Positions 1,643 through 48,808 are shown, counted from the stretch's first letter. The stretch: 64,000 nt of DNA from Planctomycetota bacterium (GCA_045863855.1 BTVV01000013.1:9294-73293), one strand, 5' to 3'. Notes: generated from the letters alone by a model not told the origin. Translations and numbers: made by a program.

Positions 1643-3529
1643 TTACGCGCCAGGCAGAAGCGCCTCGTATCCGGGCAGGTCCGCACCGTTGAGGCAGCTT
1701 TCGATGATTTTGCGCCCCAGCGGATCCAGTTCCTTGCATTCCAGATAGGGCTTCAGTTCGCGTACGAAGAAGTCGTGCAGCATCTTCGCGCCGCGGTCGT
1801 AGGTTTCGACGCCGACCTCGGGCTGCGTTTCGACTTGCAGGAACCACTGCGCGATCTGCGTGCCTTCGATCACGATGGACTTCAGCGCGAAGCCCAGGAG
1901 CGGGCAGCGCGCGGCCTGGAGCTGATCGGGCCGGAAGCGCGCGCCGCCGCGCCGGGCGAGGTATTCGCGCACGATCCACTGCGGTGCGAAACCGACCTGC
2001 CAGACGCCAACATGCTGGTTGGGCGTAATGATGTAGCGCGTGCCGGGGGTCTTGCGGATCTGCGCCAGCAGTAAATTGGCCTGATCGACTTGGCGGCCGG
2101 TGCTGAACGGCCAATAGCTACCCACACCTTCGCTGCTGAGCGGCTTCGACTCGGTGATGCTGGGGTTCGCGTGCCCGCGAGGCGCCACGAGTCGCCAGAG
2201 CCACGCCAGCGACGGAGGCAGCAGGTGCAGGATGCCGAGGATTCCGTAGCTGGGCGCCAAACGCGAGCAGGGTGGGCAGCGTACGCCAAAGCTGCGCACG
2301 TCCACTTCGACCGGCTTGTCCACGACGCCCGGCACGATGCGCCGCGGCAGGATCACACGCGGATTGGGACACGGTTCGCCCGGCCGGTCTTCGGCGTGCT
2401 CCCAAATCAGACACGTCGCGCCGGGAACCGCGTGGAGGTTCAGGAATACGAGCGGCTCAGGAGGCTGGACGGTCAGACGCTCGAGGATCGGATCGGTGCC
2501 GTAATGGTCGACATGGTTGATGCGCACGAACCAGGCGTCTTCGGCGTCGGTGACGACGAGCTTGGTGCCCTTCTGGTGCAGGGGATGGCAGATGGCCATG
2601 TCGTCGGTGACGGGCCAGAGCGTACAGCCTTGCCCCAGCGCGAGCTTTCGGCGTTCGCCGCTGACGAGGTTCTCGCCGATCAGGAGCCGGCCGTCGTGCT
2701 CGCGGTGCGGGTACTCCAGCATCTCGCTTTTGCCGCCGCCGCTGGCGCCTTCGTGCAAGATCGTCACGATGTTGTCGTAGGGCGTGACCACTTGCACCGT
2801 GGACCCGTGCGCGGTGATCCAGCCCTCTTCTTCCCCGATGGCGAGCAGCACGCCGTAGATGCCCTTCTTGGCGCTGGGGCCGGGGTAGAGGTTCAACGAG
2901 TAGATTTCATGGAGGTCTGGCGAGCGATGGTGCACGACGATCTGCTGACCGTCGCAGTGCGAATGGCGGAAGGGCGGTGCGACGTAAATGACCGCGCGCG
3001 GTTCGTACTTTTCGGGCAGGTTTTCGGGCAGGATCATATTCTGCAAGTCGGCCAGGGCCGCGGCGAAGAAGGCGGCGTTGAGCGGGCAGACCAGAAGCGC
3101 GGCGTAACCAAAATCGTCGCCGCCGGCATAGAAAGGCTGGACGATCAGCGGCTGTCCGCGCAGCCAGTCCATGACCTCTTGCTTCATGCTTTCAAAGGTG
3201 CCCTTGAAGCGTTCATGAAAGCGCGGCTTATCGGATGCGAAACTCCCAGCGACCACCATGCTGTCCGGATCGCGGCGGCGCATGTACGGTTCGGGGTAAT
3301 TGACCGCAAGTCCGTTGCGGCAGCGTACGACTTCGGCTTCGACGACCGAACCGTGGGCAGGCGTTTCGTAACGCACCTCGAAGCGGTCCGAGCCATTCCC
3401 GCCCAGCGCCCATTCGATGAGTTCGGCCCGGTTTTTGGGGATGCGCACTTCAGGCGCGCCCTGCAAAACCTGCTCGAGTTCAGGAGGCAAAACCAAGTTG
3501 GGATGAAGCGCTGAGCTGCTGGCCGGCAT
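1643..3529 (-). CDS. DUF4914-like P-loop (Walker A GASGGGKSE) hypothetical protein
   Basis: About 628 aa from ATG 3529; an alternative TTG start lies at 3574. Carries a Walker-A-like motif HEGASGGGKSEM. The family assignment is from memory and tentative. Confidence 0.5.
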   Translation of the reverse strand: MPASSSALHPNLVLPPELEQVLQGAPEVRIPKNRAELIEWALGGNGSDRFEVRYETPAHGSVVEAEVVRCRNGLAVNYPEPYMRRRDPDSMVVAGSFASDKPRFHERFKGTFESMKQEVMDWLRGQPLIVQPFYAGGDDFGYAALLVCPLNAAFFAAALADLQNMILPENLPEKYEPRAVIYVAPPFRHSHCDGQQIVVHHRSPDLHEIYSLNLYPGPSAKKGIYGVLLAIGEEEGWITAHGSTVQVVTPYDNIVTILHEGASGGGKSEMLEYPHREHDGRLLIGENLVSGERRKLALGQGCTLWPVTDDMAICHPLHQKGTKLVVTDAEDAWFVRINHVDHYGTDPILERLTVQPPEPLVFLNLHAVPGATCLIWEHAEDRPGEPCPNPRVILPRRIVPGVVDKPVEVDVRSFGVRCPPCSRLAPSYGILGILHLLPPSLAWLWRLVAPRGHANPSITESKPLSSEGVGSYWPFSTGRQVDQANLLLAQIRKTPGTRYIITPNQHVGVWQVGFAPQWIVREYLARRGGARFRPDQLQAARCPLLGFALKSIVIEGTQIAQWFLQVETQPEVGVETYDRGAKMLHDFFVRELKPYLECKELDPLGRKIIESCLNGADLPGYEALLPGA

Positions 3530-37011: not shown

Positions 37012-38151
37012 CTACGCCCCCACGCCCGCCAAGGCCTTGAAGCGCCGCGCGAGCTTCCACTTGCCTGCGGCCAGCTCGTCGAAAACCTCGTCCACCTGCG
37101 AGGGATCCAGCGGCAGGCGCATCGGCTTCTGCAGGAAATGACTCAAGACCAGCGCATTGAAGAAGTGCACGGCCTCGCGCGCGCCTTCGGGGTCCACCAG
37201 CGGCTTGCGCCCGTCGCGTACGGCGAGTACGAAATCGCGCACCAGCGAACCCGGCTCGAACGGTTCGGCCTCGGGAAAATCCTGCCAGGTCAGCCCCGGC
37301 TTCTTGGCGAACATCTCCGCCTCGTCGCCCGCGTCGTAGAAGTCGTACACGCCTCCGTCCAGCCGCCCCAGCTTGATCGGCTTTCCGAACTGGATCGCGC
37401 CACGCTCGGTCTCGTACTCGACGACGTTCGTCGGCGAAAAGCTCGAGACATTCGCGACGAACGTTCCCGTTGCGCCGTTGGCGTACTCCAGCGCGGCCGT
37501 GCAGGTGTCTTCCACCTCGTGATCGTGGAACAGGTTATCCAGCCGCGCGCGCACTTCGGCGACCTGCCCGGTCACGTTCAGCAGCGCGTCGATGTCGTGG
37601 ATTGCCTGATTGATCAGGACGCCGCCGCCTTCGTACTTCCATGTGCCGCGCCACGCGCCGGTTCGGTAATACTTGTTGTTGCGGACGCTGTTGCTGATGT
37701 AGGTCGCGCGCACCAGCGGGCCGAGTTCGCCGTTGCGCATCACCTGGACCACGTGGCGCTGGGTGATCCGCTTCTGGTGATGGACGGTAAGCAGCTTTCC
37801 GGCCTTTTGGGCGGCGGCGAGCATCTTGTCGCATTCGCCGATGCGGATCGCCATCGGCTTCTCGACCAGCACGTGCAAGCCGGCTTGCAGGGCCGCGGTT
37901 CCGAGGGGCTGATGCAGGAAGTGCGGCAGATTGAGCAGCACCGCTTCGCACTGTCCGCTGGCAAAGAGCTTCTCGGCGTCGTTGAAGGCTTGCGCATTCG
38001 GGCAGAGTTTCTGGGCGTCTTCGACCGCCTTCGCGTTCAAGTCGCAGACCGCGGTGACTTCGGCTTCCGGCGTCTCGGCCGCGTTCTTCACGCGCCCCGC
38101 GCCCACGCCGCCGACGCCTACGATGCCCAGCCGGATTTTACGCTGCCCCAT
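37012..38151 (-). CDS. Gfo/Idh/MocA family oxidoreductase
   Basis: LGIVGVGGVG Rossmann motif and EKP. Confidence 0.8.
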   Translation of the reverse strand: MGQRKIRLGIVGVGGVGAGRVKNAAETPEAEVTAVCDLNAKAVEDAQKLCPNAQAFNDAEKLFASGQCEAVLLNLPHFLHQPLGTAALQAGLHVLVEKPMAIRIGECDKMLAAAQKAGKLLTVHHQKRITQRHVVQVMRNGELGPLVRATYISNSVRNNKYYRTGAWRGTWKYEGGGVLINQAIHDIDALLNVTGQVAEVRARLDNLFHDHEVEDTCTAALEYANGATGTFVANVSSFSPTNVVEYETERGAIQFGKPIKLGRLDGGVYDFYDAGDEAEMFAKKPGLTWQDFPEAEPFEPGSLVRDFVLAVRDGRKPLVDPEGAREAVHFFNALVLSHFLQKPMRLPLDPSQVDEVFDELAAGKWKLARRFKALAGVGA

Positions 38152-44476: not shown

Positions 44477-44506
44477 GCCAGGAATTTCCGAAGATTCTGC
44501 TCGAAC

Positions 44507-44537
44507 GGGCCGGAAGAAATTCCGGCCCGTTTTTTTA
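44507..44537 (+). terminator. rho-independent terminator of rplC
   Basis: GGGCCGGAAGAAATTCCGGCCC hairpin followed by TTTTTTT. Confidence 0.7.
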
Positions 44538-44633
44538 TGCTTAAACCGCACGAGTGCTGCTCGAAGTGAGTTACGCAAAGTGTATGGCCGAGGAAGCTAT
44601 ACGAGGCGCTATATTTGCGCCACGTCGTGCGCT

Positions 44634-44703
44634 AAGTGTAAAAGTGTAAAGCGTAAGTGTAAAGTGTAAGGCTAACTTTACACTTAGGTTTACACTTTTT
44701 TTT
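44634..44703 (+). repeat. tandem/inverted AGTGTAAA octamer repeats forming long imperfect hairpin followed by T9
   Basis: Four direct copies of (A)GTGTAAAG are followed by two inverted copies TTTACACT and then TTTTTTTTT. It forms a very AT-rich patch in GC-rich DNA. Confidence 0.55.
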
Positions 44704-44784
44704 GACGCGGTTCGAGCGTGACAAAAGGCGCGAACCGGGTCGAATGGGTTCGAAAAAAGGCGCGTCCTTCCGTGACCTTCCGCG

Positions 44785-45372
44785 TCAGGGGTGCGGGGGA
44801 GGGGGTTGGGGCGCGTCGGCTCGAATGACGACCCAACGGGCGATGCGCGGGCAGCACAGAAAGACCAGCAGCAGGAGGAAGAGCTGGCCATACGGCGTAA
44901 AAAGGAAGAGCCAGAGCGGGTACCACCAGAAGACCGCATGCGCATCCACGCCTATATCCAAGTAATCGACGCCACCGCGTCGATTCAGGTACTGCCATTT
45001 CAGGTTCAACAGCATGACCCACGAGCCTCCGAAGGCGGCGGGGATTAAAACGCAAAGCGTAATAAGACGCCGGCTTGAGTCCGCCGTTCGATTACGCGCC
45101 AATAAGCGCAGGCCGATCAGCCACCAGATCGCGAGCAGCGTCCAAATAATCAGCAGTCCGATGAATAGCGGAGTATGGGCGTTCCGATCGATCAGTGGCC
45201 AAGCAAATAACCATGCGGCCGCGAACATTTCGACGGTCAATCCGTAGAATTCGGTGACGCGAAACTGGACCTTGGCCTGAGGGGCCACAGGCTTTAGCCA
45301 CATCGGCGCGAGCACGGCCGCCCCACAGACATGCGCGAGGGCCAAGGTCCACAAGAAGTCAAGGATGGGCAT
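44785..45372 (-). CDS. integral membrane protein, unknown function
   Basis: Five to six TM helices. ATG 45372 (MPILDFLW) is preferred over the longer track ORF. Confidence 0.5.
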   Translation of the reverse strand: MPILDFLWTLALAHVCGAAVLAPMWLKPVAPQAKVQFRVTEFYGLTVEMFAAAWLFAWPLIDRNAHTPLFIGLLIIWTLLAIWWLIGLRLLARNRTADSSRRLITLCVLIPAAFGGSWVMLLNLKWQYLNRRGGVDYLDIGVDAHAVFWWYPLWLFLFTPYGQLFLLLLVFLCCPRIARWVVIRADAPQPPPPHP

Positions 45373-45484
45373 TCCGGAGCTCCGCGAACTTCGCCGGTGC
45401 GGTCTTGTGAAGGCCGTGCAAACCCATAATATAGCGGTAGGTACATGCAGGGGAAATCCCACTACGGGGCGGCCGATTGAGCAT

Positions 45485-46246
45485 ATGGATGGAATCGTGG
45501 CGCAAAGCGATAGGCTTGGTTTCCGTCTGCTTCGAACTTTCGCATTTAGCGAATGTACGGCCTTGGTTTTTCCTGCCTTAGCATTTTCGGTTTTGGTTCT
45601 CTGTTCCTGTTCTAGTCCTAGTCAGAGGGAGCGAGAAAAATCCGCACCGAAGGACCCCCAAGCGAAGCCCATTACAGATCAGGTAGAGGATGGGGGTGAA
45701 TCTTCATTTTCAGGTGAGATCATTACGCCTGACTTGATGCAGTCGGTTCCTCCGGAAAAGCGGCATCCATTTCTTATGCCTGGCGAAGTGTATAGCGTGC
45801 CGCGCGTATTAAGCACCCCCAGCGGCTCGGTTTTAGAATTAGCCGAAAAAGGAATTAAGATCGTTAAGGGCCATTGGGAGATTAAAGGGGACTTTATTCG
45901 AGGCTCGCCCTTAGAAGGACAACCGCAGGCCATTTTGGAGTTCGATGTCGAAGATGCCTACTATGTCGGGATTTGGGCGAGAGGCGAGGCGGCGGGAGTG
46001 GGCTATTCTGTGGGCAAAAATACTATCTACGGCATTCGTCCGAACAGTACCTTAAAGTCTGTGGGACTCTATTTCCCTATTAATCGAAGTCCCGAACTCT
46101 GGTTGGACGAGAAGCGCCATCAATCCGAGTTGCCCGACTCGGATACTGTCCTTTCAGAAATTAAAGAGGGCAAGTGTTGGTTGATCGTAGAGCAGGGCAC
46201 AATCGAGTTTATGAATTTTAGCATCTATATGCGTTCGAATAATTAG
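45485..46246 (+). CDS. lipoprotein, unknown function
   Basis: Signal peptide with lipobox LVLC-S. Low-GC codon usage. No known domain. Confidence 0.5.
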   Translation: MDGIVAQSDRLGFRLLRTFAFSECTALVFPALAFSVLVLCSCSSPSQREREKSAPKDPQAKPITDQVEDGGESSFSGEIITPDLMQSVPPEKRHPFLMPGEVYSVPRVLSTPSGSVLELAEKGIKIVKGHWEIKGDFIRGSPLEGQPQAILEFDVEDAYYVGIWARGEAAGVGYSVGKNTIYGIRPNSTLKSVGLYFPINRSPELWLDEKRHQSELPDSDTVLSEIKEGKCWLIVEQGTIEFMNFSIYMRSNN

Positions 46247-46281
46247 TAGCATTGGGGTCGGGTGTGGTAGTTGGACTTGGA

Positions 46282-47088
46282 ATGGATCCATCTATGGGGA
46301 AGCACGTCAACTCGCTGCAGGAAGCAGCGAAATATTCGAATGCGCTATTTTACTTGGATTGCGAGAACGAAATACCGGTTACAAGCCCAGTACGCTTGGT
46401 TCGATGTACGGATGATGCGTTGCAGCGGTTGAGCGATGATTTGGGTTTTTACGGACTTCTTACGGATGCCACTCAGTGCGTCTTTTTTGATATTACACCA
46501 AGCGATCCACCTTGGACGAAAGCGCAGCTTAGCGGGGATATCTGGGTTGCTCCTAAATACGAGGCACTTCTGGGCGCTGCGATTCGGCAGGTGCTTATCG
46601 GCAAGGCCGAAGACCTATACAATAGTGCCTTTGACCCAACGAAACCCCTTTACCCCCTTGAGTCGCGCAAAGTCGGTGCTACGCCCATGTCCCTCGCAGC
46701 GGAATCAAACGATTGGGATGGAACGTTTGTTCGAATGCTCCGACTGAACCCCAACATCAATGCCTGTAACTCGAATGGTGATACTCCACTTCATGGCGCC
46801 GCGAGAGGCGGCCACGCCGCTTTCGTTGAGCGATTAATCGCATTACGAGCTATGGTCAATGCCAAAGGCGCGCATGAAAGAACGCCTCTCCACCTTGCCA
46901 TCCTGAATCAGATGAACAAATATCCTCCGTCCACAGACGCCGCAAAGCTTTTGATTCTGAACCATGCCGATGTGAATGCAAAGGATGAGAAAGGCTTAAC
47001 TCCTTTGGACTACCTATTGCGGTGGTGTCCCAACGATCTTGAGTTGAAGGAAATGCTTCTGTCGAGAGGCGCAGTAAGAGGAGGCTAG
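46282..47088 (+). CDS. ankyrin-repeat protein with unknown N-terminal domain
   Basis: Two to three C-terminal ANK repeats (GDTPLHGAARGGHAAFVERLI..., ERTPLHLAI..., KGLTPLDYLL). An alternative TTG start lies at 46252. Confidence 0.65.
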   Translation: MDPSMGKHVNSLQEAAKYSNALFYLDCENEIPVTSPVRLVRCTDDALQRLSDDLGFYGLLTDATQCVFFDITPSDPPWTKAQLSGDIWVAPKYEALLGAAIRQVLIGKAEDLYNSAFDPTKPLYPLESRKVGATPMSLAAESNDWDGTFVRMLRLNPNINACNSNGDTPLHGAARGGHAAFVERLIALRAMVNAKGAHERTPLHLAILNQMNKYPPSTDAAKLLILNHADVNAKDEKGLTPLDYLLRWCPNDLELKEMLLSRGAVRGG

Positions 47089-47190
47089 TAGGCCGGTGGC
47101 ACGGGCAGTCCCTCCCACCGATCTTGAACGCGTCGCCCTTTCTGGATTTGGTGCCACGGGATGCGGACGTTCGCAACCCGTGCACACCAC
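47089..47190. repeat. REP-like imperfect palindromes (GGTGGCACGGG / GGTGCCACGGG ... CCCGTGCACACC)
   Basis: Two related GC-rich palindromic units lie between the ankyrin gene and the transposase. A third related unit (CGTGCCACCAGCC) overlaps the transposase stop at ~47905-47918. Confidence 0.3.
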
Positions 47191-47238
47191 CGTACGTCTC
47201 TCGATGAACGTCACGGACTCCTATAGACTGCGCGGCGC

Positions 47239-47901
47239 ATGGACGGTCGGCCCCCGCATCGCAAGCGCGTCCGCACGTACAACGTGCCGGGGCACGCGCA
47301 ATTTCTCACCTTCTCCTGTTACCGGCGCATGCCTCTATTAAGTAACGACACATGGCGTGGTTGGTTGGGCGAAGGCGTCGCGCGCGCATGCGCTTCATTC
47401 GACTTCGCGCTGTGGGCGTATGACTTCATACCGGAGCACGTTCACCTCCTGGTGAAGCCGCGCGGGAGCGTCTACGACGTGAGCGCCTTTCGCCGGAGTC
47501 TCAAGCAGGGCGTTTCCAAACGCATCGTGAACGCGCTTAAAGAGAAGAACGCGCCGGTGCTCGCGAAACTCCGCGTCCAAGAGCGTCCGAGGAAATGGTG
47601 CTACCGCTTCTGGCAGGAAGGGCCGGGGCACGACAAGAACATCTGGAGCCTGGCCAAGGTGATCGAGAAGGCGGTATACTGCCATCGGAATCCGGTGGAT
47701 CGCAAACTCGTGCGTTCGCCGGAACAGTGGCGTTGGTCGAGTTTTCGCTGGCTGGAGTTGGGTAACAAGGAACAAGAATCGCTGGCGGTGGACGCTTGGG
47801 ACGAGCGGCTCCGCGACGATCCGGACGGTGAGGCACTGGCTGCTTACACCCGCAGCCAGTGGCACCAGTTCCTAAAGGGTACGCGGAAAGATGAGGCGTG
47901 A
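47239..47901 (+). mobile_element. IS200/IS605-like Y1 (HUH) tyrosine transposase, REP-associated (RAYT-like) type
   Basis: HUH motif EHVHLLV. Catalytic Tyr context AVYCHRNPV. C-terminal W.WSS motif (WRWSSFRW). 220 aa. Confidence 0.7.
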
Positions 47902-47979
47902 CCGTGCCACCAGCCATGCGCATGAAGGTGCGCTTAAGTACGAAGAGCAAATTCTCCTGATACTAAAGGGGCAATAGCG

Positions 47980-48315
47980 ATGGATGCGGAAGAAGCCGTC
48001 AAGGCACTCTGCCATTTAAGAAGGCGTGGAGGCATTACGGAGGATGGTTTCATTTTGGCATTGATAGCCAACGCGTCTGAATATTTTCCGGCTGACATTT
48101 GGCGTTCAATAAAAGATGACGACAAGGCGGAAGTTAAGCGCCATGTGTTCTCGATAAGGAATGGGGCTTCGGTATTTGGAGGGATTGACCGCAAGGCGGT
48201 ACTGGAAGGCGTAAAAGCATTTGTTGATTTCTTTGAAAAGGACCCAGCCGCCGTCCTCCGCAAAAACTCATCGCGTGGCGGATCAGGGGATGAAGGAACC
48301 GTCGATAAAAAGTAG
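47980..48315 (+). CDS. small hypothetical protein (111 aa)
   Basis: ATG start. Low-GC codon usage like the neighbouring island genes. No known family. Confidence 0.35.
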   Translation: MDAEEAVKALCHLRRRGGITEDGFILALIANASEYFPADIWRSIKDDDKAEVKRHVFSIRNGASVFGGIDRKAVLEGVKAFVDFFEKDPAAVLRKNSSRGGSGDEGTVDKK

Positions 48316-48808
48316 AAGAGCAGGGCTGAAGTAGAGTCGGAATTGGCGGCTTCAACGCAGATCCGTGCAAACGATTGCAATCCCTTCCGCCAAGTAGCCG
48401 CCAAAGTTTTGCCATCGAAACCGTAGATCAAGAGATCGAGAAGGCTTGCAACCTACCACCCTTGGTTTCCTAAACCGGAGGTCGCCCTCTGCTTGCTCCG
48501 AAGGGCGGGCTCTGCGTTGGCCTCGCCCGCCGTATGGTCTCGATGCGACGCCCTGCGGGACGCCTTGCCGTTTCAAAAGCGCCTGGCGACGCGGTGAGCA
48601 CGCTTTTCAGCGAGCTGCCAGGGCGCGGGATCGATCGTTCCGGCTACGCATCTTTACGAAAGAGTGCGCGTTCTTGTGAGGGCAAAAAATTGGGTTAGGC
48701 TGAGCGGTGCATGGACGGCAAAACGCACCGGCAGCATGCGCGCACGTGCCAGCGGGATCGGCGGGCGGACGGCGTTTTGAACCGGATGCCTTGGACTTCC
48801 GCCTGCGC

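Follow-up and report, generated by a model that had tools for sequence, protein, structure and literature searches.

A 64,000-nucleotide stretch of DNA from a Planctomycetota bacterium (GCA_045863855.1, BTVV01000013.1:9294-73293; hereafter the window) carries on its plus strand an 825-bp unit, 47091..47915, made up of a left module, a gene for a RAYT-like HUH/Y1 protein (REP-associated tyrosine transposase, REP standing for repetitive extragenic palindrome) and a right module, the ends of the unit being inverted copies of one ~100-nt module. The gene (47239..47901, plus strand; stop codon 47899-47901) is an intact open reading frame (ORF) of 220 codons. It holds all of the motifs that an earlier note on this DNA had picked out: HVHLLV at residues 67-72 (H67-V68-H69), the catalytic-tyrosine motif YCHRNPV at 147-153 (Y147), and W.WSS, here WRWSS, at 164-168. 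The key residues are H67/H69, W125-Q126, Y147, N151-P152 and W164-W166-S167-S168. In an alignment of 29 relatives H67, H69, W125, N151, P152, W164, W166 and S168 are invariant and Y147 is kept in at least 90%, and all 29 match the RAYT hidden Markov model (best E 8e-29). The metagenome-assembled genome (MAG) "Planctomycetota bacterium AMXMBFR7" lists the identical sequence as a hypothetical protein, and an exact-sequence look-up of it found no contig. About 3000 relatives are present in databases, mainly from Planctomycetota and mainly 190-220 residues long. As to additional RAYT copies, for which the earlier note had suggested a check, the gene is single-copy within the window.

Sequence and structure comparisons point in the same direction. 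The Pfam domain Y1_Tnp (PF01797) matches at 26.1 bits (cutoff 23), as expected from the earlier assignment to the Y1 family; it covers residues 25-102 only and is the sole domain in the Pfam scan, which found no second domain and no C-terminal helix-turn-helix (HTH). The NCBIfam model REP_Tyr_transpos (NF047646) matches end-to-end (model positions 2-146 of 146; 64.1 bits), and transpos_IS200 (NF033573) reaches 25.9 bits, below its cutoff of 55. The best match of the family profile in the PDB is Escherichia coli TnpA-REP (4ER8, 2.6e-10), with the HUH half and the Y..NP..W.S half both aligned; IS200-type chains match at 6.5e-5 to 7e-3, through the N-terminal half only. A phmmer search of the PDB with the single protein gave no match, and 4ER8 was reached only by the family profile. 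The AlphaFold (AF2) model of the protein has a pLDDT (predicted local distance difference test score) of 84.8, with low confidence in the tail after residue ~200 (~200-220), and Foldseek ranked 4er8_A first (4.5e-9, TMt 0.75, 19% identity), with ISDra2, IS608 and Sulfolobus IS200 as runners-up at 2e-5 to 1e-3. Class 2 (TnpA-REP) of Quentin et al. is defined by Y-x-x-x-N-P (PMC6006769). Judged by its motifs, the Planctomycetota protein would be a class 2 HUH-Y1 enzyme, because YCHRNP fits Y-x-x-x-N-P and not the Y----Q of class 3. The two NCBIfam scores, the first rank of 4ER8 by both profile and Foldseek, and this tyrosine motif uphold the choice of a RAYT over an IS200 transposase that had been made from the sequence alone.

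Mirror-image modules around the gene

Each module consists of an outer box, GGCYGGTGGCAC (box A), and an inner hairpin that has GGTGC as its 5' foot (box B), the feet being GTGG at the outer boxes and GTGC at the inner hairpins. On the left, box A (GGCCGGTGGCACGGGCA, GTGG foot; 47091..47120, plus strand) forms the terminus of the unit, and GGTGGCACGGG at 47095-47105 falls within a weak hairpin (47094-47120; DNA fold -7.6 kcal/mol, z -1.9). The inner-left REP (47150..47188, plus strand; GGTGCCACGGG...CCCGTGCACACC) has its GGTGC foot at 47150-47154 and a stem of 47155-47165 against 47172-47182 with one A.A mismatch, and it folds as a strong single-stranded DNA hairpin (-15.7 kcal/mol, z -3.5, a fold that none of 200 shuffles equalled). 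These are the two upstream palindromes of the earlier note; both are where it placed them, the first as a weak hairpin only. A third, at the stop codon, is there as sequence but is not a palindrome of its own: CGTGCCACCAGCC, at 47903-47915 directly 3' of the stop codon, does not fold (z +1.5) and is rather the inverted partner of the first. It lies in the outer-right box A (47899..47915, minus strand; reverse complement GGCTGGTGGCACGGTCA), which overlaps the stop codon and forms the right terminus.

The best hairpin of the unit had been overlooked. This is the inner-right REP (47832..47866, minus strand), inside the coding sequence at codons ~199-210, with a GGTGC foot that is the reverse complement of 47862-47866 and a perfect 10-bp stem (47834-47843 against 47852-47861). 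On the minus strand it reads GGTGCCACTGGCTGC-GGGTGTAA-GCAGCCAGTGCC. It is the inverted partner of the inner-left hairpin and shares its head, GGTGCCAC, and the stem differs through compensatory changes; its 15-mer GGTGCCACTGGCTGC is an exact match common to two loci from other genomes (L001/L002). A local repeat search pairs 47091-47107 with 47899-47915 as inverted partners (17 nt, 88% complementary), and 47137-47183 with 47833-47879 (47 nt, 72%, including the inner-right 10-bp-stem hairpin). In alignment A3, box A (GGCYGGTGGCACTG) equals the start of the 5' arm of the hairpin with G for C. It marks the terminus of the element, could pair alternatively with the 3' arm of the hairpin and the C that follows, and may define the cleavage site.

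RAYT residues ~199-220 are encoded by the right module. The resulting C-terminal peptide, ALAAY.RSQWHQF (alignment A1 columns 215-242; window 47833-47901), is encoded by the right REP and confined to the closest subclade (P0002-P0008); in most relatives the downstream REP sits ~120 nt past the end of the protein match.

The GTGSCACGGG motif that had first drawn attention to the flanks is by itself not significant in the window (2 matches against 0.42 expected; 10 of 100 shuffles reach 2). The case for more than chance rests instead on the mirror-symmetric four-part layout and its conservation in other genomes. A mismatch-tolerant search of the 64 kb returned the unit's four elements as the only related sites, and a scan for GTG[CG]CA[CT]-footed hairpins returned the two with 10-bp stems and one chance-level 6-bp match, simulated sequences of the same composition giving a mean of 1.7 weak footed-hairpin matches. 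Window-wide repeat finding detected no dispersed family. A 25-nt direct-repeat family (D4: 777-801, 37640-37664, 47281-47305; 80-84% identity) overlaps the RAYT gene in its 5' part and is probably a chance match in GC-rich sequence.

Homologous loci and gene-less copies

A like layout, with a cleaner hairpin, is found at four loci whose proteins are 72% (L001) and 67% (L002-L004) identical: the plus strand carries GGTGCCACTGGCTGCGGnCGTTTGCAGCCAGTGCC 75-80 nt ahead of the gene, the last codons include an inverted copy of it, and GGCTGGTGGCA(C/T) boxes are found farther out. At L019, where the homologue is 58% identical, the gene has on either side, outside the coding sequence, a shorter hairpin that keeps this head, and extra copies follow downstream. 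The inner-left REP of the window is homologous to the upstream REPs at other loci. Some 7 kb from its RAYT gene, L001 also has a head-outward doublet of a different footed hairpin (3076-3151; GTGCCACAGGTCG...CGACCTGTG), a second REP type in that MAG.

We retrieved 80 metagenome loci with the family alignment and analysed them jointly with the earlier loci. When upstream and downstream sequences are compared, their best inverted match is nearly always a GGGTG(C/G)CAC-headed hairpin. A footed hairpin stands upstream on the plus strand and downstream on the minus strand, heads outward, at 52 of the 66 nonredundant loci with enough flank; the remainder have a hairpin on one side (11 loci) or none (three), and the opposite orientation on both sides is seen at only five. 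It is in this form, as inverted hairpins conserved across homologues, that the proposal of REP-like flanks stands. The family has 27 distinct stems behind the foot (GTGC, n=81; GTGG, n=23). Compensatory double changes occur in six of the ten stem pairs (40 cells, 28 equal-length hairpins), a level reached by 0 of 500 shuffles, and slid stem registers pair in only 23-41% of cells. Since the hairpins were chosen by a hairpin finder, the percentage paired is partly so by construction, and what is informative is how diverse the stems are while the foot stays constant. In the aligned loci, a constant foot with diverse, covarying stems is the pattern of a REP family that co-evolves with its RAYT.

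Scanning 185,579 species genomes with the exact 25-base hairpin pattern, by which genome copy numbers are lower bounds, gave 14 loci in four Planctomycetota MAGs and one contig binned as Chloroflexi. NC_groundwater_1043 has the pattern on five contigs, FR_30 at five sites, TGS_PLA7 on three contigs and H5_PLA8 at one site. Among the pattern matches a close homologue of the gene is found at only one locus per genome. At the other loci stands a hairpin by itself, a right end of ~100 bp by itself, or an inverted head-outward doublet whose heads are 86-137 bp apart, and the solo right ends in FR_30 all end at the equivalent of 47915. When left ends are aligned with reverse-complemented right ends, a single ~100-nt module emerges for gene-bearing and gene-less elements alike, with the consensus box A (GGCYGGTGGCACTG), a variable spacer of ~35 nt, and box B (CTGGTGCCACTGG plus hairpin); GGCYGGTGGCAC is kept at the termini of both kinds of element. 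One complete mini-element (L010:190-432) is REPIN-like (REPIN, REP doublet forming a hairpin), because the whole element folds as a single long hairpin (-69.5 kcal/mol, z -10.2). Target-site duplications were not seen at the six elements with readable termini, which is consistent with HUH-Y1 chemistry. The 403 kb of collected loci contain 53 footed hairpins that are separated by over 450 bp from every Y1 gene and whose stem is usually that seen in the REPs of the local gene. The REP family is therefore dispersed in relatives, in small numbers that are lower bounds. The suggestion of a dispersed family made in the earlier note thus holds for related genomes, where gene-less copies exist, but not for the 64 kb of the window, which has no other copy, and H5_PLA8 offers one decayed site.

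Several other repeats and contigs were encountered in these scans. FR_30 contains further Y1 paralogues (L016 2752-3243 and 5532-6026; L008 2720-3217), ~31% identical and near REP copies of the window type. They are bounded by a different inverted hairpin, GGGTGGCCCCCATAACsCCGTTATGGGGGC, which suggests several RAYT/REP pairs within that genome. The contig binned as Chloroflexi (L006 3094-3223; JACRBR010000144.1, 3.4 kb) carries a REPIN-like mini-element of the Planctomycetota type, and its placement could reflect mis-binning or horizontal transfer. IMG/VR viral contigs contain no real relative of the RAYT protein. Matches to a loose hairpin pattern in them are about as numerous as the estimated chance number, and a handful are true footed hairpins: L105/L131 (IMGVR_UViG_3300038701_003238), L128, L135 and L109 have GGTGCCACTGG feet and 9-10-bp stems without a Y1 relative. 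Such contigs may represent prophage regions, or may come from Planctomycetota and have been wrongly classed as viral.

Interpretation of the unit

We consider it highly probable that the unit is a REPtron of a Planctomycetota lineage, in which an intact TnpA-REP/RAYT gene lies between two inverted cognate modules of ~100 nt. We favor this because of the affinity of the protein, the mirror-image modules, the family-wide conservation and stem covariation, and the gene-less copies in relatives. Several observations pull the other way. The NF047646 score of 64.1 bits is below the curated cutoff of 80, and the EHVH context of the HuH motif is none of the subclass motifs tabulated in PMC6006769; the HuH-Y spacing of 80 residues likewise fits no tabulated subclass exactly. 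The inner foot is GTGC, and the canonical one GT[AG]G. No further module copy was found within the window by motif, mismatch and footed-hairpin scans, the decayed copy in H5_PLA8 (L011) is the sole exact-pattern match in a contig of 3.26 Mb, and classical REPs typically run to hundreds of copies, far more than the exact-match lower bounds counted in relatives.

If it works like E. coli TnpA-REP (4ER8) and IS608 (PMC6006769), the enzyme would bind the folded hairpin on single-stranded DNA and read its unpaired 5' foot. The HUH-bound metal and Tyr147 might then cut the strand to give a 5'-phosphotyrosine intermediate, and rejoining of the strand to another cleaved site could excise, insert or amplify inverted module pairs as REPIN-like mini-elements.

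What moves is less clear-cut. A tentative alternative, to which we give distinctly lower odds, is that the 825-bp unit is not a stationary, domesticated REPtron but an autonomous element or self-mobilising REPIN: a RAYT inside its own REPIN that moves or transfers whole and sheds gene-less derivatives, resembling miniature inverted-repeat transposable elements, by internal deletion. The two readings overlap and differ only in what moves. The nearest copy in the genome collection, L011, bears directly on this question. It matches the window only over 47090-47247 (84%) and 47625-47915 (91%), includes the inner-left REP variant and ends at the same termini; it has lost 377 bp internally, and with them the HUH half, bears a frameshift and is flanked by unrelated genes. 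The unit is all that the window and L011 have in common (84-91% nucleotide identity), with borders exactly at the outer boxes, and a decayed copy of this kind is insertion sequence (IS)-like behavior. Its different context and decay suggest that inheritance is not stably vertical. The gene-bearing loci examined, namely L001, L002, L014, L019 and the window, all have different neighboring genes. The gene-less mini-elements have the identical four-part architecture and termini, and the absence of target-site duplications is as expected of HUH-Y1 chemistry if whole units move.

The GC content around the unit suggests an insertion as well. From ~44.5 to 48.3 kb (44500-48330) GC content is 0.49-0.57, against 0.63 for the window, and this patch contains ORFs without a Pfam match, an ankyrin-repeat gene (46252-47088) and a 111-aa ORF (47980-48315) that has no homologue outside the AMXMBFR7 MAG in a collection of 5.8 billion proteins and for which an exact-sequence look-up found no contig. 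The unit, at a genome-typical 0.62, is wedged between genes of 0.51 and 0.49, and homology with every other copy stops at 47090/47915. For these two reasons it looks like a later insertion into the low-GC patch and not the patch's vehicle, and the idea that the RAYT had mobilised the cargo of an acquired island finds no support. We know of no RAYT that moves cargo genes. Two independent Logan assemblies (L101 and L102; SRR22452305 and DRR491768) have contigs 100% identical to the window that both stop at 47120, the 3' edge of the outer-left hairpin, which is a hint, though no proof, of a branch in the assembly graph due either to a repeat or to a presence/absence variant.

Against movement of the whole stands the single copy in the window. 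A search for an empty site found none; the 111-aa ORF has no homologue to mark one, and the closest ankyrin homologues, ~60% identical, are on contigs only 1.3-1.6 kb long. The same borders could also have arisen through loss of synteny or by recombination at REPs, depending on how closely the compared genomes are related.

The possibility that the flanking hairpins are cis-regulatory, mRNA-stabilising or terminator structures and not enzyme substrates seems very slight. The outer-left hairpin does begin 3 nt past the ankyrin stop codon, and REPs have secondary effects on mRNA stability and termination in other bacteria (PMC6006769). However, terminator-like sites number 0 against 1.3 expected and there is no Rfam match, and with both scans empty we dropped a regulatory RNA. 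Modules also occur without any Y1 gene in several genomes, as inverted doublets and solo ends, and the two sides are inverted, so both cannot act in the same sense on one transcript. Least likely of all, and close to negligible, is a classical IS200/IS605 insertion sequence with left- and right-end subterminal hairpins, which would explain the Y1_Tnp match above threshold, the hairpins near both ends and the want of target-site duplications, but not the transpos_IS200 score of 25.9 bits against 55, a tyrosine motif that is not the class 1 Y[IV]ENQ, best sequence and structure matches that are TnpA-REP, the absence of tnpB and of near-identical gene copies in the window, or ends that are inverted copies of one module where IS608 and ISDra2 have distinct same-strand hairpins at left and right. 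The earlier note, too, had set aside a classical IS200 with IS ends.

Comparison with known systems

A REPtron in Planctomycetota is essentially a known kind of bacterial repeat system, here well-formed, because REPtrons and REPINs are already well known (PMC3116915, PMC5581495, PMC6006769), RAYT genes with flanking repeats have been noted in the planctomycete R. baltica (PMC3733652), and GGTG feet are recorded for marginal members of subclass 2.2 (PMC6006769). Literature searches for the motif strings returned unrelated papers only. The system departs from the textbook in four ways: its foot is not GTAG; its modules of ~100 nt are bipartite; its 3' REP is read through as a C-terminal tail, in this subclade only; and its gene unit has the termini of the mini-elements, in different contexts and once as a deletion derivative. 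These lend a mobile REPtron some plausibility, though we would still bet against it.

To our knowledge, REPIN-RAYT systems have been studied almost entirely in Proteobacteria. The present family is a large RAYT lineage of Planctomycetota, with thousands of relatives in databases and a very regular architecture of inverted bipartite modules around the gene, a GGTG(C/G) foot, stems that covary with the gene, and gene-less doublets with the gene unit's termini. If the unit is mobile, the family would be a good system in which to study how IS200-like elements became REPIN-RAYT. A self-mobilising REPIN would be an extant link from IS200-like insertion sequences to domesticated REPIN-RAYT, and would run counter to the opinion that REPtrons do not transpose whole. 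For the window itself, the unit is small, self-contained and inserted in a low-GC accessory patch, with no link to movement of the neighboring genes.

Membership in three other groups of Y1 enzymes was rejected on the tyrosine motif, domain content and end structure. IS200/IS605 TnpA proteins (IS608, ISDra2) share the HUH-Y1 fold (Foldseek ~2e-5), recognition of hairpins in single-stranded DNA and the lack of target-site duplication; their ends, however, are asymmetric and on the same strand, their behavior is multicopy, their tyrosine motif differs, and the NCBIfam score here is far below the cutoff. Class 3 TnpA-Y1, which has more Planctomycetes than the other classes, is marked by Y----Q and a CnGA foot (PMC6006769). 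It resembles our family in host phylum and in flanking atypical secondary structures reminiscent of a REPtron, but we see Y---NP and a GGTG(C/G) foot. The TIRtron/TIRYT systems (PMC3733652; approximately subclass 2.1 of PMC6006769) are similar in that long terminal inverted repeats, some of which are self-complementary, enclose a Y1 gene, and in their moderately abundant repeat families. Our protein, unlike theirs, has no C-terminal HTH/DnaA_C-like (HTH_23/HTH_28-like) domain by Pfam, only a tail of low pLDDT; the termini GGCYGGTGGCAC do not fit GGGGWSAS, and the HuH context is not NHVH/NH[YF]H.

The closest parallels are with proteobacterial RAYTs. E. coli TnpA-REP (YafM; PDB 4ER8; subclass 2.2 in PMC6006769, Group 2 in PMC5581495) has the common HUH-Y1 fold, is the top profile and structure match, and shares Y-x-x-x-N-P, a WQ/WE motif and a C-terminal extension of the W.(W)SS type. 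Its gene also lies between inverted cognate stem-loops, hairpins with an unpaired 5' tetranucleotide foot, and gene-less inverted-repeat doublets occur there too (bacterial interspersed mosaic elements [BIMEs] or REPINs). The differences are considerable: 19% identity, 220 residues as opposed to 165, a HuH-Y distance of 80 residues and not ~60, EHVH in place of DHLH, and GGTGC (inner) and GTGG (outer) feet in place of GTAG. The Planctomycetota unit further has a bipartite ~100-nt module at each end, a 3' REP within the coding sequence, and repeat copy numbers that, so far, are low and not in the hundreds. In the REPIN-RAYT system of Pseudomonas (Bertels and Rainey; PMC3116915; Group 3 in PMC5581495, subclass 2.5), the inferred mobile unit is the inverted doublet, comparable to the long hairpin of L010, the RAYT is flanked by the same repeats, and repeat and gene covary between lineages. 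The phylum and the foot are different, and a large within-genome population and vertical inheritance are not evident here; the Planctomycetota family presents a gene-bearing unit with the termini of its mini-elements, found in different contexts.

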